Below are positions 3,588 to 27,372 of a stretch of 32,484 nucleotides of DNA, piece by piece. This DNA is from a virus (taxonomy: Duplodnaviria > Heunggongvirae > Uroviricota > Caudoviricetes). The notes beneath the pieces are model-generated. The model ran no database searches. It worked only from the letters and a program-made list of their open reading frames with translations, and was not told the origin of the DNA. How positions within the stretch are numbered: position 1 is the stretch's first letter; each line of letters begins with the position of its first letter. A program made the position numbers and the translations under genes. The stretch is taken from IMG/VR virus record IMGVR_UViG_2548876858_000013. One strand, 5' to 3'.

Positions 3588-3859
3588 GTATTCGTATTGA
3601 AATTGGCGAACGTTATGTCGTTACCAGTGACAGCTTTCAGTTTATTCTCCACGAGAAAAAGAGAGCTGAAAGCGGTAAAAACGCCGGTCAGGAATGGCTG
3701 GCGGTGGTTGGTTATTACCCGAAATTAAGCCAGCTCGTTTCCGGCCTGATGCATCACGATATTCTGACCGGAAGCGCAAAGTCTTTTGCTGATTTAAACG
3801 CGCAGGTTGAGCAACTCAGCAAGCGTTGTTCAGAGGCTTTTGGCTCATATGGCCGTTAA
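3584..3859 (+). CDS. Hypothetical early protein preceding gene A
   Basis: 91-aa ORF, start overlaps the upstream stop (ATGA), GGAG upstream. Confidence 0.55.
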   Translation: MSIRIEIGERYVVTSDSFQFILHEKKRAESGKNAGQEWLAVVGYYPKLSQLVSGLMHHDILTGSAKSFADLNAQVEQLSKRCSEAFGSYGR

Positions 3860-6125
3860 AGCCTCCGGGCGTTTTGTCCCTCCGTCAGCATTTGCCGCAG
3901 GCACCGGTAAGGCGTTTACCGGTGCTTATGCATGGAACGCGCCACGCGAGGCTGTCGGGCGCGAAAGACCCCTTACACGTGACGAGATGCGTCAGGTGCA
4001 AGGTGTTTTATCCACGATTAACCGCCTGCCTTACTTTTTGCGCTCGCTGTTTACTTCACGCTATGATTACATCCGGCGCAATAAAAGCCCGGTGCACGGG
4101 TTTTATTTCCTCACAGCCACTTTTCAGCGTCGTTTATGGCCGCGCATTGAGCGCGTGAATCAGCGCCATGAAATGAACACCGACGCGTCGTTACTGTTTC
4201 TGGCAGAGCGTGACCACTATGCGCGCCTGCCGGGAATGAATGACAAGGAGCTGAAAAAATTTGCCGCCCGTATCTCATCGCAGCTTTTCATGATGTATGA
4301 GGAACTCTGCGATGCCTGGGTGGATGCCCATGGCGAAAAAGAATCGCTGTTTACGGATGAGGCGCAGGCTCACCTGTATGGTCATGTTGCTGGCGCTGCA
4401 CGTGTTTTCAATATTTCCCCGCTCTACTGGAAAAAATACCGTAAAGGACAGATGACCACGAGGCAGGCATATTCTGCCATTGCCCGCCTGTTTAACGATG
4501 AGTGGTGGACTCATCAGCTTAAAGGCCAGCGTATGCGCTGGCATGAGGCGTTACTGATTGCTGTCGGGGAGGTCAATAAAGACCGTTCTCCTTATGCCAG
4601 TAAACATGCCATTCGTGATGTGCGTGCACGCCGCCAGGCAAATCTGGAATTTCTTAAATCGTGTGACCTTGAAAACAGGGAAACCGGCGAGCGCATCGAC
4701 CTTATCAGTAAGGTGATGGGCAGTATTTCTAATCCTGAAATTCGCCGGATGGAGCTGATGAACACCATTGCCGGTATTGAGCGTTACGCCGCAGCAGAGG
4801 GTGATGTGGGGATGTTTATCACGCTGACCGCGCCGTCAAAGTATCACCCGACACGTCAGGTCGGAAAAGGCGAAAGTAAAACCGTCCAGCTAAATCACGG
4901 CTGGAACGATGAGGCATTTAATCCAAAGGATGCGCAGCGTTATCTCTGCCATATCTGGAGCCTGATGCGCACGGCATTCAAGGATAATGATTTACAGGTC
5001 TACGGTTTGCGTGTCGTCGAGCCACACCACGACGGAACGCCGCACTGGCATATGATGCTTTTTTGTAATCCGCGCCAGCGTAACCAGATTATCGAAATCA
5101 TGCGTCGCTATGCGCTCAAAGAGGATGGCGACGAAAGAGGAGCCGCGCGAAACCGTTTTCAGGCAAAACACCTTAATCGGGGCGGTGCTGCGGGGTATAT
5201 CGCGAAATACATCTCAAAAAACATCGACGGCTATGCACTGGATGGTCAGCTCGATAACGATACCGGCAGGCCGCTGAAAGATACTGCTGCGGCTGTTACC
5301 GCATGGGCGTCAACGTGGCGCATTCCGCAATTTAAAACGGTTGGTCTGCCGACAATGGGGGCTTACCGTGAACTACGCAAATTGCCTCGCGGTGTCAGCA
5401 TTGCTGATGAGTTTGACGAGCGCGTCGAGGCTGCACGCGCCGCTGCAGACAGTGGTGATTTTGCGTTGTATATCAGCGCGCAGGGCGGGGCAAATGTCCC
5501 GCGCGATTGTCAGACTGTCAGGGTCGCCCGTAGCCCGTCGGATGACGTTAACGAGTACGAGGAAGAAGTCGAGAGAGTGGTCGGCATTTACGCGCCGCAT
5601 CTCGGCGCGCGTCATATTCATATCACCAGAACGACGGACTGGCGCATTGTGCCGAAAGTTCCGGTCGTTGAGCCTTTGACTTTAAAAAGCGGCATCGCCG
5701 CGCCTCGGAGTCCTGTCAATAACTGTGGAAAGCTCACCGGTGGTGATACTTCGTTACCGGCTCCCACACCTTCTGAGCACGCCGCAGCAGTGCTTAATCT
5801 GGTTGATGACGGTGTTATTGAATGGAATGAACCGGAGGTCGTGAGGGCGCTCAGGGGCGCATTAAAACACGACCTGCGAACGCCAAACCGTCAGCAAAGA
5901 AACGGAAGCCCGTTAAAACCACATGAAATTGCACCATCGGCCAGACTGACCCGGTCGGAAAGAATGCAAATTACCCGTATCCGCGTTGACCTTGCTCAGA
6001 ACGGTATCAGGCCGCAGCGATGGGAGCTTGAGGCGCTGGCGCGTGGCGCGACCGTAAATTATTACGGGAAATCTTTCAATTATCAGGTCGCTGATGAGTG
6101 GCCTGGATTTTTGTTACCCATTTGA
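3849..6125 (+). CDS. A: Rolling-circle replication initiation endonuclease (P2 gpA-like)
   Basis: Long ORF 3807..6125; start may be the ATG at 3849 (MAVKASG...) or 3807. Contains an HUH-like motif (PHWHMMLF, about 5038-5060) and a paired-tyrosine motif (GYIAKYISK, about 5195-5220) characteristic of phiX174/P2-type Rep proteins; P2 gene A position. Confidence 0.85.
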   Translation: MAVKASGRFVPPSAFAAGTGKAFTGAYAWNAPREAVGRERPLTRDEMRQVQGVLSTINRLPYFLRSLFTSRYDYIRRNKSPVHGFYFLTATFQRRLWPRIERVNQRHEMNTDASLLFLAERDHYARLPGMNDKELKKFAARISSQLFMMYEELCDAWVDAHGEKESLFTDEAQAHLYGHVAGAARVFNISPLYWKKYRKGQMTTRQAYSAIARLFNDEWWTHQLKGQRMRWHEALLIAVGEVNKDRSPYASKHAIRDVRARRQANLEFLKSCDLENRETGERIDLISKVMGSISNPEIRRMELMNTIAGIERYAAAEGDVGMFITLTAPSKYHPTRQVGKGESKTVQLNHGWNDEAFNPKDAQRYLCHIWSLMRTAFKDNDLQVYGLRVVEPHHDGTPHWHMMLFCNPRQRNQIIEIMRRYALKEDGDERGAARNRFQAKHLNRGGAAGYIAKYISKNIDGYALDGQLDNDTGRPLKDTAAAVTAWASTWRIPQFKTVGLPTMGAYRELRKLPRGVSIADEFDERVEAARAAADSGDFALYISAQGGANVPRDCQTVRVARSPSDDVNEYEEEVERVVGIYAPHLGARHIHITRTTDWRIVPKVPVVEPLTLKSGIAAPRSPVNNCGKLTGGDTSLPAPTPSEHAAAVLNLVDDGVIEWNEPEVVRALRGALKHDLRTPNRQQRNGSPLKPHEIAPSARLTRSERMQITRIRVDLAQNGIRPQRWELEALARGATVNYYGKSFNYQVADEWPGFLLPI

Positions 6126-7355: not shown

Positions 7356-8438
7356 ATGCTTGGAACTTCATCACAAAGAGCTATTTCAGTACAACATGTT
7401 GATTTAAATGTAAAGTGTTGGGTCGTTAGACCTGGGATTAAGTATAGATATTTTGCAGACTTCCTTGAACGCAATATGGTTGCTACTGCTCACTTGGATA
7501 GGTTAAGTCCAGATCAAATTGACTTTAATGATGAAATTAACCATGAAAATATTAATCAAAAGGTTGATGGGTTAGATACTATTGGTTCAAGAAATATTCA
7601 TACCCAAATTGAAAATTTCCTCATAGATATGCAGGTCGGTGATGTTGTTTTCACTTTGTCAGGTGATATGGTTGTTCCTGGAGTTATTGCATCTTCCGCG
7701 TATTTTGAGCGTGAATGTTTAGGTAATAATGAAGGGTTTCATGTAAGACGTAGAGTCACATGGGGAGAGCCAGTTCGCAGACGAGAGATTCCATTAGCTC
7801 TTCAGAAATCGTTTACTGCATACCAGACCGTATTCTCTTTGGGCGGGAAGTCAGAAGAAGTACTGCATTGGTTAATGTCATTCTTTATAACGGATAATAT
7901 TTTCTGTACTAGCTTAAGAGTCGAGCAAGCAGAAGCCATTCGGCATCATACTCTTAAGCAGCTGGCTGAGCTGGTCGATAGAGTGCAGGTACTTGCGCTA
8001 TTAATTGGCGAAGAGTTTGATGGCGAGTATACAAACGAAGTTGTTCAGTTTGAGATGGAAAGACTTTCTAATAATGGAGAGTTATCCTTGACTGCTCAAC
8101 AAATGTTGATGTCTCCGGGGGATGTTTGGCTACAATTTAAAACAAATAATAGAAAGGCCGGAATTGCGTTTATGTTAATTATGGGGGCCATTTTTAATCA
8201 TGATGTAGCCTTCGCTTCAACGGTTGATAATCGTATAAGTGAGGAACTTCGATCTCATATTGAAGGGAAAAAAGAGGTTGCAATGGATGGATTAAACTTT
8301 GATAGAGTTTCTCAAGTTCTAGAGTTGCGTTTAAAAAGACAAAATAGAGGCTTTGTTTCTGCTCGTCCAACGAACCGTGAGATCGGACAGGGGATCAATT
8401 TCCCTGAAGATGGTGATGCGAGGCATGCGAGTGACTAA
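7356..8438 (+). CDS. Hypothetical cargo protein, 360 aa, soluble; first gene of a two-gene operon
   Basis: Long ORF in AT-rich DNA; weak RBS (GGAT), so the true start could be downstream. No nucleotidyltransferase GS..DxD motif and no clear HEPN or PD-(D/E)xK motif seen by eye. Confidence 0.7.
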   Translation: MLGTSSQRAISVQHVDLNVKCWVVRPGIKYRYFADFLERNMVATAHLDRLSPDQIDFNDEINHENINQKVDGLDTIGSRNIHTQIENFLIDMQVGDVVFTLSGDMVVPGVIASSAYFERECLGNNEGFHVRRRVTWGEPVRRREIPLALQKSFTAYQTVFSLGGKSEEVLHWLMSFFITDNIFCTSLRVEQAEAIRHHTLKQLAELVDRVQVLALLIGEEFDGEYTNEVVQFEMERLSNNGELSLTAQQMLMSPGDVWLQFKTNNRKAGIAFMLIMGAIFNHDVAFASTVDNRISEELRSHIEGKKEVAMDGLNFDRVSQVLELRLKRQNRGFVSARPTNREIGQGINFPEDGDARHASD

Positions 8439-8440
8439 CT

Positions 8441-9130
8441 ATGAACTTTGAATTTGTAAAAGAACACTGGCTGATAATAGGCATGCTATTCATAGCATGT
8501 CTATTATTAATTTTAAAATTCAAAGATATTTACAGAACACACGATCAGTTTAATAACGTCGTGATGTCATTGTGCGCTGTTTTGACACTTGTGTGGGGAG
8601 GATATACTTTTGATGTTTTGCACCAAAGGGATAAGGCAGAAGCTGATCTTATAGAGTTAAGAAATAGAATTAGAAATACAGAATCGACATTTTTTAATGT
8701 TGACGTTAATGTTGTTAAAATCGATGATGTGTTTTATATAAAGCCTATTGTGACTATTAGGAATAACAGTAATGAGCGAATTTATGTGAAGCTTAATAAC
8801 AAGTCCCTTGCTGTTAGTCGTGTTTTATCGGCCGGTGCAAAGCAAGTCGCTACGGAAGTTTTTTATCCAAATTATTATGAGGAGTTGGCTGTTCTTAATG
8901 AAGAAAGTAGCTCGCAAGGAAAAGCTAAAAATATACCTTTATATGACATATCCGTTCCTATCTCTGCTGAAAGACGCTTGAACTATCTTGTTTCGACAAA
9001 AGAAAAAGGAATGTATTATGTAACATTTAGTGCTGAGGCAATGAACGAAGATGGCTCGCCTGTTTCTAAATACATAAATGGGAAAAAATCTATATGGTTT
9101 TCTTCTTCATATATTGAAGTTAAAGATTGA
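8441..9130 (+). CDS. Hypothetical cargo membrane protein, 229 aa, two N-terminal TM helices plus a beta-rich-looking soluble domain
   Basis: ATG 2 nt after the upstream stop (TAACTATG). Hydrophobic segments WLIIGMLFIACLLLIL and VVMSLCAVLTLVWGGYTF; the remainder is rich in alternating hydrophobic/polar stretches. AT-rich. Confidence 0.7.
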   Translation: MNFEFVKEHWLIIGMLFIACLLLILKFKDIYRTHDQFNNVVMSLCAVLTLVWGGYTFDVLHQRDKAEADLIELRNRIRNTESTFFNVDVNVVKIDDVFYIKPIVTIRNNSNERIYVKLNNKSLAVSRVLSAGAKQVATEVFYPNYYEELAVLNEESSSQGKAKNIPLYDISVPISAERRLNYLVSTKEKGMYYVTFSAEAMNEDGSPVSKYINGKKSIWFSSSYIEVKD

Positions 9131-17351: not shown

Positions 17352-17781
17352 TGCCGTCACGGTGCTGAAAACTAACCCCGATATGCTGCGGATATTCGTG
17401 GATAACGGGAGTATTGCCTCCACACTGGCGGCGTCGTTGTCATTCGAAAAGCGTTACACGCTCAATGTCATTGTGACCGACTTTACCGGTGATTTTGACC
17501 TGCTCATCGTGCCGGTGCTGGCGTGGCTGCGGGAAAATCAGCCCGACATCATGACCACCGACGCAGGCCAGAAAAAGGGCTTCACGTTTTATGCAGACAT
17601 CAACAATGACAGCAGCTTTGATATCAGCATCAGCCTGATGCTGACCGAGCGCACGCTGGTCAGTGAGGTGGACGGCGCGCTGCATGTGAAGAATATCCCG
17701 GAACCTCCGCCGCCGGAGCCGGTCACCCGCCCGATGGAGCTGTATATCAATGGCGAACTGGTGAGCAAGTGGGATGAATGA
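17314..17781 (+). CDS. R: Tail completion protein (P2 gpR-like)
   Basis: 155 aa, recalled P2 gpR length, in synteny. Confidence 0.85.
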   Translation: MLKPDSLRRALTDAVTVLKTNPDMLRIFVDNGSIASTLAASLSFEKRYTLNVIVTDFTGDFDLLIVPVLAWLRENQPDIMTTDAGQKKGFTFYADINNDSSFDISISLMLTERTLVSEVDGALHVKNIPEPPPPEPVTRPMELYINGELVSKWDE

Positions 17782-18226
17782 GTTTAAGCGTTTTGAAGAC
17801 CGGCTGACCGGACTGATTGAATCGCTGTCACCGTCAGGGCGTCGGCGACTGAGTGCCGAACTGGCGAAACGCCTGCGGCAGAGTCAGCAGCGTCGGGTGA
17901 TGGCACAGAAAGCTCCGGACGGCACACCCTACGCGCCACGCCAGCAGCAGAGCGCCAGAAAAAAGACCGGTCGTGTTAAGCGAAAAATGTTTGCGAAACT
18001 TATCACCAGTCGTTTTTTGCATATCCGCGCCAGCCCGGAACAGGCATCAATGGAGTTTTACGGCGGGAAGTCACCGAAAATCGCCAGTGTGCATCAGTTC
18101 GGTCTGTCGGAAGAAAACCGGAAAGACGGTAAGAAAATTGATTATCCGGCGCGTCCTCTGCTCGGCTTTACCGGTGAGGATGTGCAGATGATTGAAGAGA
18201 TTATCCTGGCTCACCTTGAGCGTTAG
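17774..18226 (+). CDS. S: Tail completion protein (P2 gpS-like)
   Basis: 150 aa, recalled P2 gpS length, in synteny. Confidence 0.85.
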   Translation: MNEFKRFEDRLTGLIESLSPSGRRRLSAELAKRLRQSQQRRVMAQKAPDGTPYAPRQQQSARKKTGRVKRKMFAKLITSRFLHIRASPEQASMEFYGGKSPKIASVHQFGLSEENRKDGKKIDYPARPLLGFTGEDVQMIEEIILAHLER

Positions 18227-18297: not shown

Positions 18298-19083
18298 TTA
18301 TGAGTGGTTTTTATTTGATGCTTTGTATTCTAAAACCTTCTTATTGGCGTAAAGGAATTTTGTATATGACAGGAATATAAGCAGACCTGAAATGAAATAG
18401 GTTAGGGATATTATTAATAATGTTTTTCTGTGGCTGTTATTATCTTTAATCTCCTGACTTAACCATTCGGAGTCCTCCTTGTTTAGCTGTAAGAGCTTAT
18501 TGCAGGCGATCTCGGGAAGTGTGTCTTTTATAAATACGTTTTGCAGACTCTTGCAATCGGCAAGGCTATAAGTTTTATTAAATTCAACCGTTTTATTTTT
18601 GAAGGATAAAAGAACTTTGTCACTATAAACATAGTACATCATATTTTTATATGGTATACCTATGGCATCCCTTACTATAGCGGATTGTTCATTGTGTATA
18701 TAACATGCGAAGAGAATATAAATAATACTGGCCAGAATTACAATTATTGTTTTAATTATGTGTGGTGGTTTTGTTATGTCACCCCAGATGCGAGTAAGGA
18801 AAAAATACGATGTTTTTAGTTTTCCATCAATCAGTCCCTGCTGTATCATTCTCACATTTTCAATGCCTGATACATTGATTCCGTTAATTATTTTAAATAG
18901 TTGAATGTCGCGCCACTCGCGGTCAAGTCTTTTTAATTTTTTGTCTGAATATCCAAAATTGAAATAATGTGCAATAAGCCTCATAAGGTTACTTTTACCA
19001 AAGCTAAAAAATGCTAATACTGCAAAGCTACAAAGGAAAAAAACGATTAGCCCCCACACATTAGTCACATTATAGCTGACCAT
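18298..19083 (-). CDS. Hypothetical cargo membrane protein, 261 aa, three predicted TM helices
   Basis: Strong RBS (AAGGAG six nt upstream of the ATG at 19081-19083); very AT-rich; hydrophobic segments near the N-terminus (VWGLIVFFLCSFAVLAFFSF), middle (IIKTIIVILASIIYILFACYI) and C-terminus (LLIISLTYFISGLLIFLSY). Sits at the S-V variable locus. Confidence 0.75.
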   Translation of the reverse strand: MVSYNVTNVWGLIVFFLCSFAVLAFFSFGKSNLMRLIAHYFNFGYSDKKLKRLDREWRDIQLFKIINGINVSGIENVRMIQQGLIDGKLKTSYFFLTRIWGDITKPPHIIKTIIVILASIIYILFACYIHNEQSAIVRDAIGIPYKNMMYYVYSDKVLLSFKNKTVEFNKTYSLADCKSLQNVFIKDTLPEIACNKLLQLNKEDSEWLSQEIKDNNSHRKTLLIISLTYFISGLLIFLSYTKFLYANKKVLEYKASNKNHS

Positions 19084-19166
19084 TACGCTCTCCTTGAATG
19101 TTGTCTGGTAGTTCTACAAATGAATCCAGATAGCATAACTTTTATATATTGTGCAATCTCACATGC
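19084..19166. promoter_or_regulatory. Probable late promoter region upstream of V, shared with the divergent cargo gene
   Basis: Position-based inference; 83-bp AT-rich divergent intergenic region. Confidence 0.3.
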
Positions 19167-19802
19167 ATGAACACTCTCGCAAATATTCAGGAACTCGCGC
19201 GCGCACTGCGCAACATGATTCGCACCGGCATTATCGTCGAAACCGACCTTAACGCCGGTCGCTGCCGCGTGCAGACCGGCGGCATGTGCACCGACTGGCT
19301 TCAGTGGCTGACCCATCGCGCCGGGCGTTCGCGCACATGGTGGGCACCTTCCGTGGGGGAACAGGTGCTGATTCTGGCCGTGGGTGGTGAACTCGACACG
19401 GCGTTCGTTCTGCCGGGGATTTATTCCGGCGATAACCCCGCGCCGTCTGCGTCGGCGGATGCCCTGCATATCCGTTTCCCTGACGGGGCGGTGATTGAGT
19501 ATGAACCTGAAACCAGCGCGCTCACGGTAAGCGGAGTTAAAACGGCCAGCGTGACGGCTTCTGATTCTGTTACTGCCACGGTGCCGGTGGTCATGGTGAA
19601 AGCATCAACCCGCATCACCCTGGACACACCGGAGGTGGTCTGCACCAACAGGCTGATTACCGGCACGCTGGAAGTGCAGAAGGGCGGGACGATGCGCGGC
19701 AACATTGAACACACCGGCGGTGAGCTCTCATCAAACGGTAAGGTACTGCATACCCATAAACACCCCGGCGACAGCGGCGGCACAACCGGGGGACCTCTAT
19801 GA
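19167..19802 (+). CDS. V: Baseplate assembly/spike protein (P2 gpV-like)
   Basis: ATG at 19167 gives 211 aa (recalled P2 gpV length); the ORF track start at 19149 is a TTG. Confidence 0.85.
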   Translation: MNTLANIQELARALRNMIRTGIIVETDLNAGRCRVQTGGMCTDWLQWLTHRAGRSRTWWAPSVGEQVLILAVGGELDTAFVLPGIYSGDNPAPSASADALHIRFPDGAVIEYEPETSALTVSGVKTASVTASDSVTATVPVVMVKASTRITLDTPEVVCTNRLITGTLEVQKGGTMRGNIEHTGGELSSNGKVLHTHKHPGDSGGTTGGPL

Positions 19803-20150: not shown

Positions 20151-21059
20151 ATGCCGATTATCGACCTGAACCAGCTACCCGCACCGGATGTGGTCGAGGA
20201 GCTGGACTTTGAAACCATTCTCGCCGAACGCAAGGCGACACTGATTTCCCTTTACCCGGAAGACCAGCAGGAGGCGGTCGCCCGTACCCTGACGCTGGAA
20301 TCTGAGCCTCTCGTCAAACTGCTGGAGGAAAATGCTTATCGTGAGCTTATCTGGCGTCAGCGTGTGAATGAGGCCGCACGGGCGGTGATGCTGGCCTGTG
20401 CCGCCGGTAATGACCTTGATGTGATTGGTGCCAATTACAACACCACGCGCCTGATTATCACCCCGGCAGATGATTCGACCCTCCCGCCGACACCGGCCGT
20501 GATGGAATCTGACACCGATTATCGTCTGCGTATTCAGCAGGCGTTTGAAGGTTTAAGCGTCGCCGGGTCGGTGGGGGCCTATCAGTATCATGGTCGCAGT
20601 GCTGACGGGCGTGTCGCGGATATCTCTGTTACCAGTCCGTCTCCTGCCTGCGTCACCATCTCCGTGCTGTCACGTGAAAATAACGGTGTCGCATCCGAAG
20701 ACCTGCTGGCTGTGGTGCGTAACGCCCTTAATGGTGAGGACGTCAGGCCGGTGGCCGACCGCGTGACCGTGCAGTCTGCCGCCATCGTTGAATACCAGAT
20801 AAACGCCACGCTTTACCTTTACCCTGGTCCCGAAAGCGAACCCATCCGCGCTGCCGCTGTGAAAAAGCTGGAAGCGTATATCACGGCACAGCACCGGCTG
20901 GGGCGCGACATCCGTCTGTCTGCCATTTATGCCGCTTTGCATGTGGAAGGCGTGCAGCGTGTCGAACTGGCTGCACCGCTGGCCGATATCGTGCTTAACA
21001 GCACGCAGGCGTCTTTCTGTACCGAATACCGCGTCGTGACCGGAGGCTCGGATGAGTGA
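20151..21059 (+). CDS. J: Baseplate protein (P2 gpJ-like)
   Basis: 302 aa, recalled P2 gpJ length. Confidence 0.9.
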   Translation: MPIIDLNQLPAPDVVEELDFETILAERKATLISLYPEDQQEAVARTLTLESEPLVKLLEENAYRELIWRQRVNEAARAVMLACAAGNDLDVIGANYNTTRLIITPADDSTLPPTPAVMESDTDYRLRIQQAFEGLSVAGSVGAYQYHGRSADGRVADISVTSPSPACVTISVLSRENNGVASEDLLAVVRNALNGEDVRPVADRVTVQSAAIVEYQINATLYLYPGPESEPIRAAAVKKLEAYITAQHRLGRDIRLSAIYAALHVEGVQRVELAAPLADIVLNSTQASFCTEYRVVTGGSDE

Positions 21060-21582
21060 TTCGCGACTGCTGCCGACCGGCTCATCACCGCTTGAGGTCG
21101 CCGCCGCAAAAGCCTGTGCGGAAATTGAAAAAACGCCGGTCAGTATTCGTGAGCTGTGGAACCCGGATACCTGTCCGGCAAATCTGCTGCCGTGGCTGGC
21201 GTGGGCGTTTTCGGTCGACAGGTGGGATGAGAAGTGGCCGGAAGCGACAAAACGCGCCGTTATCCGCGATGCGTATTTCATTCATTGTCATAAAGGCACT
21301 GTCGGTGCAATCCGGCGTGTGGTGGAGCCGCTCGGCTATCTCATCAACGTGACGGAGTGGTGGGAAAACAGTGACCCGCCCGGCACCTTCCGGCTTGATA
21401 TTGGTGTACTGGAAAGTGGCATCACAGAGGCAATGTATCAGGAAATGGAACGGCTGATTGCTGATGCCAAACCTGCAAGCCGCCACCTTATTGGCCTGAA
21501 CATTACCCGGGACATTCCCGGCTACCTGTTCGCCGGTGGTGTGGCTTACGACGGCGATGTAATTACGGTTTACCCCGGATAA
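21052..21582 (+). CDS. I: Tail/baseplate protein (P2 gpI-like)
   Basis: 176 aa, recalled P2 gpI length; start overlaps the J stop. Confidence 0.85.
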   Translation: MSDSRLLPTGSSPLEVAAAKACAEIEKTPVSIRELWNPDTCPANLLPWLAWAFSVDRWDEKWPEATKRAVIRDAYFIHCHKGTVGAIRRVVEPLGYLINVTEWWENSDPPGTFRLDIGVLESGITEAMYQEMERLIADAKPASRHLIGLNITRDIPGYLFAGGVAYDGDVITVYPG

Positions 21583-21592
21583 GTGAGGAATA

Positions 21593-23722
21593 ATGAGCAC
21601 AAAATTCAGAACCGTTATCACCACTGCCGGTGCAGCAAAGCTGGCAGCGGCAACCGCGCCGGGAGGGCGGAAGGTCAACATTACCACGATGGCCGTCGGG
21701 GATGGCGGTGGTAAATTGCCTGTCCCGGATGCCGGACAGACCGGGCTTATCCATGAAGTCTGGCGACATACGCTGAACAAAATCAGCCAGGACAAACGAA
21801 ACAGTAATTATATTATCGCAGAGCTGGTTATTCCGCCGGAGGTGGGTGGTTTCTGGATGCGTGAGCTTGGCCTGTACGATGATGCGGGAACGTTAATTGC
21901 CGTGGCGAACATGGCCGAAAGTTATAAACCTGCCCTTGCCGAAGGCTCAGGGCGTTCGCAGACCTGCCGCATGGTCATCATCGTCAGCAGTGTGGCCTCA
22001 GTGGTGCTGACCATTGACACCACAACGGTGATGGCGACGCAGGATTACGTTGATGACAAAATTGCAGAGCATGAACAGTCACGACGTCACCCGGACGCCT
22101 CGCTGACCGCAAAAGGTTTTACTCAGTTAAGCAATGCGACCAACAGCACGTCTGAAACACTGGCCGCAACGCCGAAAGCGGTAAAGGCCGCCTATGACCT
22201 GGCTAACGGGAAATATACTGCGCAGGATGCCACCACAGCGCGAAAAGGTCTTGTCCAGCTCAGTAGTGCCACCAACAGCACGTCTGAAACGCTCGCCGCA
22301 ACACCAAAAGCGGTAAAGGCCGCGTATGACCTTGCTAACGGGAAATACACTGCACAGGACGCCACCACAGCGCGAAAAGGTCTTGTCCAGCTCAGTAGCG
22401 TCACCAACAGCGATTCTGAAATGCTTGCGGCAACGCCAAAGGCGGTTAAGACAGCGTATGACCTTGCTAATGGGAAATACACTGCACAGGATGCCACCAC
22501 GGCGCGGAAAGGTCTTGTTCAGCTCAGTAGCGCCACCAACAGCGATTCTGAAACGCTGGCTGCAACGCCAAAGGCGGTTAAGACAGCGTATGACCTTGCT
22601 AACGGGAAATACACTGCACAGGACGCCACCACAGCGAGAAAAGGCCTTGTCCAGCTCAGTAGCGCCACCAACAGCGATTCTGATACGCTGGCCGCAACAC
22701 CAAAAGCGGTGAGGTCTGCCTATGACAATGCTGAGAAACGTCTTCAGAAAGATCAGAACGGCGCGGATATTCCTGATAAAAGATTATTCCTGCGCAATAT
22801 TGGAGCAACAAATTCAACAACCATGTCTTTTAGTGGTGGTACAGGATGGTTCAGGCTGGCAACTGTAACCATGCCACAGGCCAGTTCCGTGGTTTACATA
22901 AGTCTGATTGGTGGTGCCGGGTATAATGTTAACTCCCCTATGCAGGCTGGTATATCTGAACTTGTTCTTCGTGCGGGAAATGGAAATCCAAAAGGTCTTA
23001 CTGGTGCGTTATGGCGACGGACCTCGGTTGGATTTACTAATTTTGCATGGGTGAATACATCCGGTGATACCTATGATGTTTATGTTGAAATAGGTAATTA
23101 CGCCACAGGTGTTAATATTCAGTGGGATTATACCAGTAACGCCAGCGTAACGATTCATACATCACCAACTTATACAGCGAATAAACCAACAGGCCTGACA
23201 GATGGAACTGTATATGTAATTTACAGTTCGCACATTAAACCGACTGCTGCTGATGTTGGGGCGTTATCATTATCTGGAGGTCAATTGAATGGTGCACTGG
23301 GCATCGGTACATCCAGTGCTCTTGGCGGTAACTCGATTGTTTTGGGTGATAATGACACGGGCTTTAAACAAAATGGCGACGGTAATCTGGATGTTTATGC
23401 TAATAACGTCCATGTTATGCGCTTTGTCTCCGGTAGCATTCAAAGTAATAAAACCATAAATATTACGGGGCGTGTTAATCCCTCGGATTACGGTAACTTT
23501 GATTCCCGCTATGTCCGGGATATCCGGCTTGGTGGTGCTGCCACATACAAACCTGCGAACAATGGCATGACATGGACACATCAGGCACCATCCGGGTGTG
23601 TATATTCCGGCATTATTGTTCAGGATACCGGCTCAAACTCTGCCGATAACATTGGTGGCGTATATTACAGGCCGGTGCAGAAATACATTAACGGGACATG
23701 GTATAACGTGGTGCAGGTATAA
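21593..23722 (+). CDS. H: Tail fiber protein (P2 gpH-like) with internal tandem repeats
   Basis: 709 aa after the baseplate genes; conserved N-terminal region, a central block of 44-aa tandem repeats, and a more AT-rich C-terminal region. Confidence 0.9.
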   Translation: MSTKFRTVITTAGAAKLAAATAPGGRKVNITTMAVGDGGGKLPVPDAGQTGLIHEVWRHTLNKISQDKRNSNYIIAELVIPPEVGGFWMRELGLYDDAGTLIAVANMAESYKPALAEGSGRSQTCRMVIIVSSVASVVLTIDTTTVMATQDYVDDKIAEHEQSRRHPDASLTAKGFTQLSNATNSTSETLAATPKAVKAAYDLANGKYTAQDATTARKGLVQLSSATNSTSETLAATPKAVKAAYDLANGKYTAQDATTARKGLVQLSSVTNSDSEMLAATPKAVKTAYDLANGKYTAQDATTARKGLVQLSSATNSDSETLAATPKAVKTAYDLANGKYTAQDATTARKGLVQLSSATNSDSDTLAATPKAVRSAYDNAEKRLQKDQNGADIPDKRLFLRNIGATNSTTMSFSGGTGWFRLATVTMPQASSVVYISLIGGAGYNVNSPMQAGISELVLRAGNGNPKGLTGALWRRTSVGFTNFAWVNTSGDTYDVYVEIGNYATGVNIQWDYTSNASVTIHTSPTYTANKPTGLTDGTVYVIYSSHIKPTAADVGALSLSGGQLNGALGIGTSSALGGNSIVLGDNDTGFKQNGDGNLDVYANNVHVMRFVSGSIQSNKTINITGRVNPSDYGNFDSRYVRDIRLGGAATYKPANNGMTWTHQAPSGCVYSGIIVQDTGSNSADNIGGVYYRPVQKYINGTWYNVVQV
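22113..22722 (+). repeat. In-frame tandem repeat inside the tail fiber gene, about 4.6 copies of a 132-bp (44-aa) unit
   Basis: Repeated peptide KGLVQLSSATNS(T/D)SETLAATPKAVKAAYDLANGKYTAQDATTAR; copies begin near 22113, 22245, 22377, 22509 and 22641 with a few substitutions. Confidence 0.85.
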
Positions 23723-23725
23723 TTT

Positions 23726-24253
23726 ATGCAGCATTTAAAAAATATTACGGCGGGTAATCCAAAAACGGTTGAACAATATCAATTAACAAAGGACTTTGAT
23801 GTTGTCTGGTTTTTTTCAGAAGATGGTAAGAACTGGTACGAAGAACAAAAGTATTTTGCTGATGACACGATAAAAATAGCGTACGACAAAGATAATATCA
23901 TCCGCTATGTGGAAAAGGATGTGACAGCTATCAGACCAGATGGATTAAGTGTTGTTGAAGTGGCGGATATTACTGCTAACCGACGGGCGGACATTTCAGG
24001 GAACTGGATGTTTAAAGACGGCACAGTGATTAAACGAATTTATACGGCGGAGGAATTGCAGCAGCAGGCAGAAAATCGGAAAGCCAGACTTCTTACAGAT
24101 GCTGAATACGTGATTTTGCCGTTGGAGCGCGCGGTCAGGCTGAACATAGCAACAGAGGAGGAGCGCACACGGTTGGAGGCTTGGGAACGCTACAGCGTTC
24201 TGGTCAGTCGTGTGGATCCTGCGAATCCTGAATGGCCGGAAATGCCGCAATAA
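23726..24253 (+). CDS. G: Tail fiber assembly protein (P2 gpG-like)
   Basis: 175 aa, recalled P2 gpG length, directly after H. Confidence 0.85.
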
Positions 24254-24537: not shown

Positions 24538-25236
24538 TTATATTTTTCCATGCTTTTCACCGTCAAATCGAATCATGCTAGGATCAAGAAAATAAATCAA
24601 ATCAATTAACGCATGTTGTATTCTGATTAGCCTTTCTTTATAAGGCTCGATATTTTTTGTCATATTTATCACTTCATTGTTTAAATCTAAAAAAAATGGT
24701 TCATTGACAAAGCAATTTTCCTTTGTGAAACCGCCGTAACCTATGCAATCAAATCCAGCATCTGTTGATATCAACATCTTTTCCGCAATAGCTCTCTGCT
24801 CTCCTATGAAAAACATAAAATACTGACCAAAGGCGTCTGTTTGGATTAATGAGTTAATATTGTTCTGTAATCTAATAAACTCCCTCATTTTTTTATTTTT
24901 TTCTAGACTAAGGTATTGAATGTCTATGCGGGCAGCTTCTGTCCATGCAAAGAACTGGGAAAAAAGAAAAACCGTATTTTTGATAACATAATCTTGTTGG
25001 CGCTTACTCCCATTATGATAAAACTCTTCAATAAACCCTAATTCTAATATGTTATAAATGCGGCTTTGTAAGTCTGAAGCTGAGCGAATTAACGGTTCAA
25101 TATAGTACTGATGTTTTCTCCTTACATCCAGTGTTTCATTGAGCTTGTTTATTCTATTCTGATTATAGGTAGATATAGCAATAGAGATTATAGATATTGC
25201 ACCACCAATAAGGCTTGAAATTAATGCCACACTCAT
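24538..25236 (-). CDS. Hypothetical cargo protein, 232 aa, N-terminal TM helix plus soluble domain
   Basis: RBS AAGGA seven nt upstream of the ATG at 25234-25236; very AT-rich; N-terminal hydrophobic segment VALISSLIGGAISIISIAISTY; at the G-FI variable locus. Confidence 0.7.
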   Translation of the reverse strand: MSVALISSLIGGAISIISIAISTYNQNRINKLNETLDVRRKHQYYIEPLIRSASDLQSRIYNILELGFIEEFYHNGSKRQQDYVIKNTVFLFSQFFAWTEAARIDIQYLSLEKNKKMREFIRLQNNINSLIQTDAFGQYFMFFIGEQRAIAEKMLISTDAGFDCIGYGGFTKENCFVNEPFFLDLNNEVINMTKNIEPYKERLIRIQHALIDLIYFLDPSMIRFDGEKHGKI

Positions 25237-26181: not shown

Positions 26182-27372
26182 ATGAGTGACTATCATCACG
26201 GCGTGCAGGTGCTGGAGATTAACGACGGCACCCGCGTCATTTCCACTGTATCCACGGCCATTGTCGGCATGGTCTGCACGGCCAGCGATGCGGATGCGGA
26301 AATCTTCCCCCTCAATAAACCGGTGCTGATTACCAATGTGCAGAGCGCAATTGCAAAGGCCGGTAAAAAAGGCACGCTGGCGGCATCGTTGCAGGCTATC
26401 GCCGACCAGTCAAAACCGGTCACCGTTGTTGTGCGCGTGGAAGACGGCACCGGCGACGACGAAGAAACGAAACTCGCGCAGACCGTTTCCAATATCATCG
26501 GCACCACCGACGAAAACGGTCAGTACACCGGACTGAAAGCCCTGATGGGGGCGGAGTCGGTTACCGGCGTTAAACCACGCATTCTCGGCGTACCGGGGCT
26601 GGACACCAAAGAGGTTGCCGTCGCACTGGCATCGGTATGCCAGGAACTGAATGCATTCGGGTATATCAGCGCATGGGGCTGTAAAACCATTTCCGAGGCA
26701 AAAGCCTACCGTCAGAATTTCAGCCAGCGTGAGCTGATGGTCATCTGGCCGGATTTCCTCGCATGGGATACGGTTACCAGTACCACCGCCACCGCGTATG
26801 CCACCGCCCGTGCGCTGGGTCTGCGCGCTAAAATCGACCAGGAGCAGGGCTGGCATAAAACGCTGTCCAACGTCGGGGTGAACGGTGTTACCGGCATCAG
26901 TGCATCCGTCTTCTGGGATTTGCAGAAGCCCGGCACTGATGCTGACCTGCTTAACGAGTCAGGCGTCACTACGCTGATTCGCCGCGACGGTTTCCGCTTC
27001 TGGGGTAACCGTACCTGCTCTGATGATCCGCTGTTCCTCTTTGAAAGTTACACCCGCACCGCGCAGGTACTGGCCGACACGATGGCTGAGGCGCACATGT
27101 GGGCTATTGATAAGCCCATCACCGCAACGCTGATTCGCGACATCATTGACGGCATCAATGCCAAATTCCGTGAACTGAAAAACAACGGTTATATCGTGGA
27201 TGGCACATGCTGGTTCAGCGAAGAATCCAACGATGCGGAAACCCTCAAGGCCGGCAAACTGTATATCGACTACGACTATACACCGGTGCCTCCTCTTGAA
27301 AATCTGACCCTGCGCCAGCGTATTACTTCCAGATACCTGGCAAGTCTGGTCACTTCGGTTAACAGCAATTAA
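26182..27372 (+). CDS. FI: Tail sheath protein (P2 gpFI-like)
   Basis: 396 aa, recalled P2 FI length. Confidence 0.9.
   Translation: MSDYHHGVQVLEINDGTRVISTVSTAIVGMVCTASDADAEIFPLNKPVLITNVQSAIAKAGKKGTLAASLQAIADQSKPVTVVVRVEDGTGDDEETKLAQTVSNIIGTTDENGQYTGLKALMGAESVTGVKPRILGVPGLDTKEVAVALASVCQELNAFGYISAWGCKTISEAKAYRQNFSQRELMVIWPDFLAWDTVTSTTATAYATARALGLRAKIDQEQGWHKTLSNVGVNGVTGISASVFWDLQKPGTDADLLNESGVTTLIRRDGFRFWGNRTCSDDPLFLFESYTRTAQVLADTMAEAHMWAIDKPITATLIRDIIDGINAKFRELKNNGYIVDGTCWFSEESNDAETLKAGKLYIDYDYTPVPPLENLTLRQRITSRYLASLVTSVNSN

Follow-up and report, generated by a model that had tools for sequence, protein, structure and literature searches.

The 132-bp repeats in tail fibre gene H of a P2-like Escherichia coli prophage: a known fibre module with a variable number of copies

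Why does a phage tail fibre carry the same 44 residues several times in a row, and does the number of copies change? The question arises from a 32,484-nucleotide stretch of viral DNA (IMG/VR record IMGVR_UViG_2548876858_000013), here called the window. The original prediction saw about 4.6 in-frame copies of a 44-aa unit at 22113-22722 in its tail fibre gene. It suggested recent expansion or ongoing recombination, and a copy number that may vary between isolates. We find that the 132-bp repeats are a real and known module, the "phage tail fibre repeat", in a P2-like tail fibre gene. We argue that the array probably consists of shaft copies of the PF03406 repeat, and that the phage population holds copy-number alleles of gpH generated by recombination.

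Gene H and its repeat units

The open reading frame, Pfam matches and gene order identify the gene as the tail fibre gene H of a P2-like (Peduovirus) E. coli prophage (21593..23722, plus strand, 709 aa). Pfam finds PF12571 and five PF03406 matches in the product. PF12571 (Phage_tail_fib, E 1.2e-57) is the N-terminal tail-collar or baseplate-attachment domain, aa 1-151 (21593..22045, plus strand), and the PF03406 array separates it from the C-terminal half, which is variable. Directly 3' of H is a gene for a tail fibre assembly chaperone of the gpG or Tfa type (23726..24253, plus strand; PF02413 Caudo_TAP, E 1.5e-33), in the position of P2 gene G. The window also encodes P2-type gpA and gpI, and the order around H is I-H-G as in phage P2. 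The N-terminal domain and gene order are homologous to those of P2 H, which places the protein in the P2 gpH type. P2 H and G match the window at 87% identity in megablast, and P2 H has the same Pfam architecture. P2 gpH (NC_001895) and the Peduovirus H proteins share with the window the I-H-G order, the PF12571 N-terminus, the downstream Tfa-type chaperone gene, a first repeat motif at residue 191 and a 44-aa period. P2 H differs in having one full and one truncated motif copy, 2 in all, where the window has 5. Its C-terminal half is another mosaic, and P2 DNA coverage is only 54% overall. One public protein, P0014, is identical to window H and is annotated 'tail fiber protein [Escherichia coli]'.

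The array amounts to four full 44-aa units at 22109-22636, all in the frame of the 709-aa ORF, and a fifth of about 29 codons, which confirms the predicted 4.6 copies. All five units are on the plus strand and were placed by frame register. Unit 1 (22109..22240; AKGFTQLSNATNSTSE...) is an edge unit. Its DNA has 76-85% identity to the other full units, yet 93-99% to the first unit of relatives. The internal units are unit 2 (22241..22372, 'NSTSE' type), unit 3 (22373..22504, 'NSDSE' type) and unit 4 (22505..22636, also 'NSDSE' type). Unit 2 is 100% identical to unit 2 of one relative (L006); the counterpart of unit 3 in relatives is ambiguous, being either unit 3 or unit 4. Terminal unit 5 (22637..22723, 'NSDSD ... 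AVRSAYD') is truncated. Its agreement with the consensus lasts about 29 codons, until about 22723, after which it diverges; with the terminal unit in relatives the match is 89-93%. The NSTSE, NSDSE and NSDSD variants quoted in the original prediction are all found in the array. After unit 5 comes a conserved joint (NAEKRLQKDQNGADIPDKRLFLRNIGATNS; 22724..22816, plus strand) that a phmmer match shows to be common to phage Mu fibre protein S.

Tandem Repeats Finder gives one array in the whole window, at 22139-22710 (period 132, 4.3 copies, 90% matches, no indels, score 878). A second, independent repeat search gives copies spaced 132 nt from about 22111. The repeats had been called near-perfect. 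At the protein level this is right, with 2-8 of 44 residues changed between any two full units, but the DNA copies are only 76-93% identical. The closest pair is units 3 and 4 (9 differences in 132 nt, 93% identity), and the codons that differ between units are mostly synonymous. The units belong to PF03406 (Phage_fiber_2), with 319.7 bits against a cut-off of 22 over 5 stretches (E 1e-97), the best of which spans profile positions 1-41 of 42. They exceed the curated gathering threshold as tandem copies, and the protein that carries them is a phage tail fibre. All five match the Pfam model end to end and do not differ from it in kind; what is unusual is how alike they are in a single protein (82-95% amino-acid identity). 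A Pfam TPR_20 match on the repeat (23.5 bits) was under its cut-off of 25 and was disregarded.

Copy number among relatives and recombination between units

Copy number does vary between isolates, as had been predicted. Near-identical E. coli alleles carry 4, 5 or 6 copies. The 120 best E. coli homologues have lengths of 665 aa (24), 709 aa (91), 745 aa (1) and 753 aa (4), and H proteins of 665, 709 and 753 aa have 4, 5 and 6 motif copies. Flanks of the array from different length classes can be as close as 4-5 differences in 505 residues (at least 99% identity). Matches are found in about 1,600 E. coli genomes. Among the 60 top listed matches in complete E. coli genomes, 38 have a 2130-bp gene and 19 a 1998-bp gene. 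Isolated infectious Peduovirus phages have 2 copies (P2, Wphi, pro147 and P2_AC1), 3 copies (fiAA91-ss and Yersinia P37) or 4 copies (vB_EcoM-12474III and vB_YpM_46), with the first motif at residue 191 and a spacing of 44 aa in all that were examined. The IMG/VR relatives have 2-8 copies in the 74 of 80 loci that yielded a count. Their spacing is 44 aa nearly throughout; the few gaps of 88 aa are places where a unit escaped the motif pattern. The 29 genomes of other enterobacterial genera have 1-4 copies. A PF03406-type unit is found in 1511 proteins of a representative library, and the best 150 listed have 2 to 19 stretches that match. It must be noted that some of the copy-number data come from short-read assemblies, which are prone to repeat mis-counts, but complete genomes and isolated phages vary likewise. 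The array is an in-frame variable-number tandem repeat, with otherwise near-identical alleles differing by whole units. The range in related phages is 1 to at least 8 copies, all in frame, and the feature is thus an ordinary one, already catalogued. A phase-variable contingency locus, turned on and off by slipped-strand events, was considered and rejected because the unit of 132 bp is 44 codons and keeps the frame. In the literature covered, which includes neither the 1992 paper on the P2 tail fibre nor the review of P2, we found nothing specific about differences in the number of these repeats among P2-like H genes.

The suggestion of ongoing recombination is supported by shuffled internal units, excess divergence in the array and an excess of paralogous variants. 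The first and last units stay in place between alleles, and the number and order of the internal units vary (1-2-3-5, 1-2-4-5, 1-3-5, 1-2-5, 1-2-3-3-5, 1-2-4-3-5 and 1-2-2-5 are all seen). Between alleles the array diverges 3-5 times as much as the remaining H; in 5-copy alleles this is 5.5-7.3% against 0.7-2.6%. The allelic differences in the array are bases already present in another unit in 62-82% of cases, against a null of about 25%, and 0 of 2000 simulations were as high. This indicates recombination between units, although the null ignores site-to-site rate variation, and the signal would be inflated by recurrent mutation at synonymous sites that evolve fast. In distant lineages the internal units are 91-100% identical within a gene and 77-86% identical to the window's internal units, a pattern of lineage-specific duplication or homogenisation. 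Only two positions within the peptide are polymorphic across 460 internal units compared. Together with the mostly synonymous differences between copies, this argues for purifying selection on the peptide.

Recent expansion, on the other hand, is not supported for the window allele. Its copies are 7-24% apart in DNA, far above the allelic differences in the flanks, and the 1-2-3/4-5 architecture is also present in relatives with other C-terminal domains. The closest 4-copy allele, that of L006, does not have a clean unequal-crossover junction. Its unit 3 is a patchwork of unit 3 and unit 4 variants with no single switch. No Chi site that might stimulate recombination is present in the window.

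We argue that tandem 44-residue PF03406 copies would form part of the trimeric shaft of a P2-type gpH. The shaft repeats would lie between an N-terminal domain that plugs into the baseplate and a chaperone-dependent, receptor-binding C-terminal half. Out-of-register homologous recombination, either unequal crossing-over or gene conversion, would add, remove or patch whole units. Neighbours are similar enough for such exchange (76-93% identity), and a unit length of exactly 132 bp would leave the frame intact. The result would be a family of alleles in P2-like prophages with fixed edge units and a variable number and order of internal ones, the peptide being held nearly constant by purifying selection. 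The recombination between units is presumably ordinary homologous recombination, and each unit probably adds a fixed increment to the length of the shaft. A repeating structure permits adjustment of fibre length, as stated in PMC6116203. A pyocin fibre chimera with only residues 291-669 of the P2 fibre is active on the P2 host (PMC6116203). This P2 fragment is downstream of the P2 units (about residues 172-245), so the repeats are not the receptor-binding part.

It is worth considering what known structures say about the unit. An AlphaFold2 monomer of full-length H, made with a 14-sequence alignment, is unusable (mean pLDDT 38.7, and below 50 throughout the repeat region). A PDB search with the unit profile finds the unit (residues 116-150) only in phage Mu S and the S/S' chimera. 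Mu fibre protein S (gp49; PDB 5yvq and 9ki1) has one unit and the joint that follows (phmmer aligns query aa 332-408 with chain residues 99-175), and it also shares the last ~85 residues of window H. It differs in having a single unit and a different N-terminal anchor. Mu switches the variable part of its fibre by DNA inversion and not by repeat number (PMC11915804). The Mu cryo-EM work modelled only the 'N-terminus' of gp49, with the residue range unstated (PMC11915804). The mixed alpha-beta repeat of T4 gp34 and gp12 (PDB 4UXE family) has a pattern that looks the same by eye, a short strand started by a conserved Gly and a Ser/Thr-Pro helix cap, and T4 gp34 is like window H in having a tandem unit within what would be the fibre shaft. 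The capped helix of gp34 belongs to a central three-helix bundle (PMC5537660). Homology to the gp34 repeats (residues 744-868) is not supported, with an hhalign probability of 6.9% over 10 columns. PF03406 has no Pfam match on T4 gp34, and the unit profile (hmmsearch) also finds nothing there. We take the resemblance as a lead for the fold and not as membership.

Other readings of the array

The units might instead be a homology 'adaptor' for swaps of the C-terminal receptor-binding module among unrelated phages (P2, Mu, P1 and those with lambda-type side fibres), with copy change as a side effect. The idea reportedly traces to Haggard-Ljungquist et al. 1992 and Sandmeier 1994. We give it serious but less than even weight, and it is compatible with recombination-generated copy-number alleles rather than exclusive of them. 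DNA similarity to other H genes stops inside or just after the array (query ends at 594, 860, 1002 and 1181 of H). ORFs of 623 to 1166 aa combine N-termini and arrays of 94-98% identity with C-terminal halves that are quite unlike one another. Mu S shares the terminal unit and the joint and nothing upstream. However, the megablast breakpoints are partly places where identity falls below the word-size threshold, and not mapped recombination junctions. Copy number also varies where the same C-terminal half is kept and the flanks are at least 99% identical. Since alleles that share a C-terminal half differ in copies, module swapping is unnecessary for copy change.

Another scenario is that the unit is a binding module, so that copies would tune avidity and not length. 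The partner could be the tail sheath, against which the fibres would be stowed, or a surface glycan. In the extended state of Mu, a related phage, the fibres do run alongside the sheath (PMC11915804). An insertion in T4 gp34's own repeat has been suggested as a sheath contact (PMC5537660), though homology of that repeat to the PF03406 unit is not shown. The very strong conservation of the unit peptide would also fit. P2 receptor specificity, however, maps downstream of the units (PMC6116203). The unit is found in fibres of very different phage types in 1-19 copies, as would be expected of a general structural element more than of a site that binds one partner. We consider tuning of avidity improbable.

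Could the variation be an artefact of short-read assembly, with a true number that is fixed? Many homologues do come from draft assemblies, and very long arrays with perfect higher-order repeats (P0121 and P0122) could be mis-assembled. But RefSeq 'complete genome' assemblies hold both the 2130-bp and the 1998-bp gene, and isolated phages that were sequenced independently have 2, 3 or 4 copies. Collapse of the repeat is unlikely because the units differ by 7-24%, and alleles of different copy number have distinct combinations of unit variants. The artefact is already largely refuted, and we think it very improbable.

The original prediction also dismissed an antisense ORF (22192..22500, minus strand, 102 aa, GTG start) as a spurious product of the repeat, and we agree that it is a by-product and not a gene. 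There is no Shine-Dalgarno sequence upstream of it. Of the three antisense frames, two stay open over much or all of the array, both in the window and in 12 relatives. In the whole array just one sense codon, a TTA, would read as a stop on the opposite strand. The frame of this ORF runs from 87 to 242 codons among the window and its relatives, with stop positions that differ between close relatives. A real overlapping gene has an open frame of 102 codons in its favour, but a GTG start with no Shine-Dalgarno sequence, an openness that is a property of the repeat unit and a length that is inconstant in relatives leave it next to no credibility. Another ORF (22326..22712, plus strand, 128 aa) is wholly inside the array in another frame of the H strand and is a putative by-product too.

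What the array means for P2-like phages

The array is an ordinary and already known feature. It has little discovery value since the family is curated in Pfam, the exact protein is public and length adjustment by fibre repeats is already in the structural literature. Its practical value is modest. Within the 5' half of H, which is otherwise conserved, no part varies more than the array, so that typing of P2-like prophages can be misled, as possibly can their assembly from short reads. The array also matters for the engineering of delivery particles based on P2 or pyocins. Infectious phages work with 2 to at least 4 units and prophage alleles reach at least 8, so the shaft should tolerate changes of length.

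One may go further and propose that length is selected, with frequent in-frame gain and loss of units adjusting the reach of the fibre in P2-like phage populations. We regard this as doubtful. If it were true, reach could match the thickness of the O-antigen or capsule, or the fibre's own C-terminal receptor-binding module; variation in copy number would in that case be adaptive and not neutral, a fast-evolving host-range trait.

Gene H and its repeat array

The window, a P2-like (Peduovirus) E. coli prophage, carries an integrase (1-996), gpA (3807-6125), gpI (21052-21582) and a Caudo_TAP fibre-assembly chaperone (23726-24253), and megablast matches it to P2, Wphi and many Peduovirus records. 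Its tail fibre gene H is the 709-aa ORF at 21593-23722 (+). In Pfam, residues 1-151 of H match PF12571 (E 1e-57), and PF03406, Phage_fiber_2, matches 5 times (E 1e-97, 319.7 bits vs a cut-off of 22). Both the repeat, as a Pfam entry, and the protein family were known before. The exact H protein is already in public databases: NCBI lists an identical one (P0014) under the name "tail fiber protein [Escherichia coli]". The gpH of phage P2 is built the same way, with 2 motif copies.

The original prediction described about 4.6 near-perfect in-frame copies at 22113-22722. Tandem Repeats Finder detects just one array anywhere in the window, at 22139-22710 (period 132, 4.3 copies, 90% matches, 0 indels, score 878). 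A second repeat search reproduced the 132-nt spacing, and the array lies wholly inside H. Read in the H frame (+), four full units of 44 codons start at 22109, 22241, 22373 and 22505. A fifth starts at 22637, keeps the consensus for ~29 codons and then diverges into NAEKRLQKDQNGAD. The copy count stands, as does the repeat observation as a whole. "Near-perfect" is fair for the protein, where 2-8 of the 44 residues differ between full units, but not for the DNA, where pairwise identity between copies is 76-93%. The closest pair, units 3 and 4, has 9 differences per 132 nt. Most of the codons that differ between copies are synonymous.

The antisense ORF at 22192-22500 (-) had been called spurious, and it is indeed a by-product of the repeat. 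It has a GTG start without a Shine-Dalgarno, and its frame varies from 87 to 242 codons across the window and 12 relatives. It is open because of the codon content of the unit: of all the sense codons in the array, a single TTA would read as a stop on the other strand. In the window and the same relatives, 2 of the 3 antisense frames stay open over much of the array or all of it. The alternative-frame ORF at 22326-22712 (+) is probably a by-product too.

Other ORFs of the prophage

None of the 5,426 complete E. coli genomes contains the full mosaic (window 1-25000); the best match reaches 81% coverage of the first 25 kb, with 97% identity. Relatives vary at the cargo hotspots, with SIR2, reverse transcriptase and DUF7380 genes. 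Cargo ORFs at 7356-8438 (+, 360 aa) and 8441-9130 (+, 229 aa) sit in a classical P2 accessory/defence hotspot, with replication gene A on one side and the portal gene on the other. Pfam matches neither of them, and PADLOC weakly matches the first to the candidate system PDC-S02 (E 2e-12). Two adjoining ORFs at 18298-19083 (-, 261 aa) and 19083-19469 (-, 128 aa) run antisense to tail genes, flanked by ORF 17774-18226 and an ORF starting at 19149, a position we take to be that of P2 orf30. They have no Pfam or PADLOC match and may be an uncharacterised cargo pair. ORF 24538-25236 (-, 232 aa) lies between the fibre chaperone gene and an ORF starting at 26182, presumably the P2 Z/fun position. It has 0 Pfam matches and a weak PADLOC match to the DRT-associated 'RTasTM' model (E 1e-6). 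In related genomes the corresponding stretch carries the RefSeq label 'lysogenic protein'.

Copy number and evolution of the array

It had been suggested that copy number may vary between isolates, and among relatives it does. The 120 best E. coli homologues are 665 aa (24), 709 aa (91), 745 aa (1) or 753 aa (4) long, with 4, 5 or 6 motif copies. Of the 505 residues outside the array, as few as 4-5 differ between such proteins and the window protein. Among the top 60 matches listed in complete E. coli genomes, 38 genes are 2130 bp (5 copies) and 19 are 1998 bp (4 copies). Isolated phages have 2 copies (P2, Wphi, pro147, P2_AC1), 3 (fiAA91-ss, Yersinia P37) or 4 (vB_EcoM-12474III, vB_YpM_46), with the first motif at residue 191 every time and a spacing of 44 aa. 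The 74 of 80 IMG/VR loci that yielded a count have 2-8. Motifs in nearly all of these arrays are 44 aa apart; a few arrays have an 88-aa spacing where the motif pattern skipped a unit. Other Enterobacterales genera have 1-4 (29 genomes), and the best 150 of 1511 representative proteins with the unit have 2-19 matched stretches. Since relatives differ, copy number is not fixed, and 5 is a mid-range value. A literature search found no paper specifically on copy-number polymorphism of P2-type H genes; it is an expected property of such arrays.

Two fibre proteins in the representative set, P0121 and P0122, have 11-12 matched copies in a nearly perfect higher-order repeat of ~107 aa, one 44-aa unit plus a 63-aa variant with a 'AGKAPSSHTHPWNQITGVPTASLT' insert. 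The cause is either mis-assembly or very recent expansion. Three contigs (L102, L111, L112) carry enterobacterial-type fibre genes with the repeat under the labels Chryseobacterium sp., Bacillota MAG and Collinsella MAG, likely through contamination or binning error.

The edge units are positionally conserved. The first is 93-99% and the last 89-93% identical to its counterparts in relatives, vs just 69-87% to other units. We assigned every unit in 50 related arrays to its nearest window unit. Order 1-2-3-5 occurs in 25 of the 50, and the others include 1-2-4-5, 1-3-5, 1-2-5, 1-2-3-3-5, 1-2-4-3-5, 1-3-4-5, 1-2-2-5 and 1-3-3-5. Protein haplotypes behave likewise, with 62 distinct arrays in 120 proteins. 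No other part of H varies as much as the array: 5-copy alleles diverge by 5.5-7.3% in it, vs 1.0-2.5% in the N-terminal region and 0.7-2.6% downstream. Between 62 and 82% of these allelic differences are bases that another unit already has at that column. A null matched for codon position, which ignores site-to-site rate variation, gives ~25% and reached the observed value in 0 of 2000 simulations. Distant lineages expand independently. Within one of their genes the internal units share 91-100% identity, as against only 77-86% with those of the window, which indicates lineage-specific duplication or homogenisation. Across 460 full units the internal units are polymorphic at only 2 positions, T/D at 15 (NS[T/D]SE) and A/V/T at 28 (AVK[A/V/T]AYD), counted from the Ala before RKG in 22109-22636, the first unit then running from 22106. 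Both are probably surface-exposed. In the terminal unit position 28 also takes S, Y, F and A. The unit peptide is under purifying selection.

Anchored edges, varied internal units, array divergence, shuffled variants, independent expansion and purifying selection are together the classical signs of unequal recombination in a tandem array whose edges are anchored. The shuffled orders and paralogous variants bear out the proposed recombination between units. Recent expansion of the window allele is not supported by the sequence comparison, because its copies are 7-24% diverged, far above the flank divergence between alleles, and because relatives with other C-terminal domains have the same architecture. 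Apart from this the original prediction was largely right.

Role of the units

In H the array follows the baseplate-attachment domain and precedes the variable C-terminal half. A chimeric pyocin fibre whose P2 part is limited to residues 291-669 of the P2 fibre is active on the P2 host (PMC6116203). The P2 units lie upstream of that fragment and hence do not determine receptor specificity. According to the paper, repeating structures let fibre length be adjusted (PMC6116203). Given this and the placement of the array, we read the units as putative shaft modules whose number would set shaft length. The length-setting role is one we infer, since three structural routes gave little. The AlphaFold2 monomer model of H was unusable (pLDDT 38.7). 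Among solved chains, only those of Mu fibre protein S and an S/S' chimera include the unit in their sequence (residues 116-150), and the Mu cryo-EM paper is silent on whether Mu S residues 116-150 were modelled (PMC11915804). The alpha-beta fibrous repeat of T4 gp34/gp12 resembles the unit by eye, with Gly beginning a strand and Ser/Thr-Pro capping the central helix (PMC5537660), but profile comparisons with the gp34 repeat did not back this likeness.

The last 70-85 residues of H (window 23500-23722, H ~623-707) match two C-termini, that of Mu S (5yvq) and that of a 'short tail fiber' (9cuy, E 3e-18). The fibre may work with the downstream chaperone through this part. Alignments with other H genes stop in or just past the array (query end-points 594, 860, 1002, 1181), and Mu S has only the terminal unit, the following joint and the C-terminal tail in common with H. 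That units provide homology for module swaps is reportedly an old idea, of Haggard-Ljungquist et al. in 1992 and Sandmeier in 1994. The end-points and the sharing with Mu S suggest that the conserved units may also serve as homology for swapping C-terminal modules, a second role compatible with that of shaft modules.
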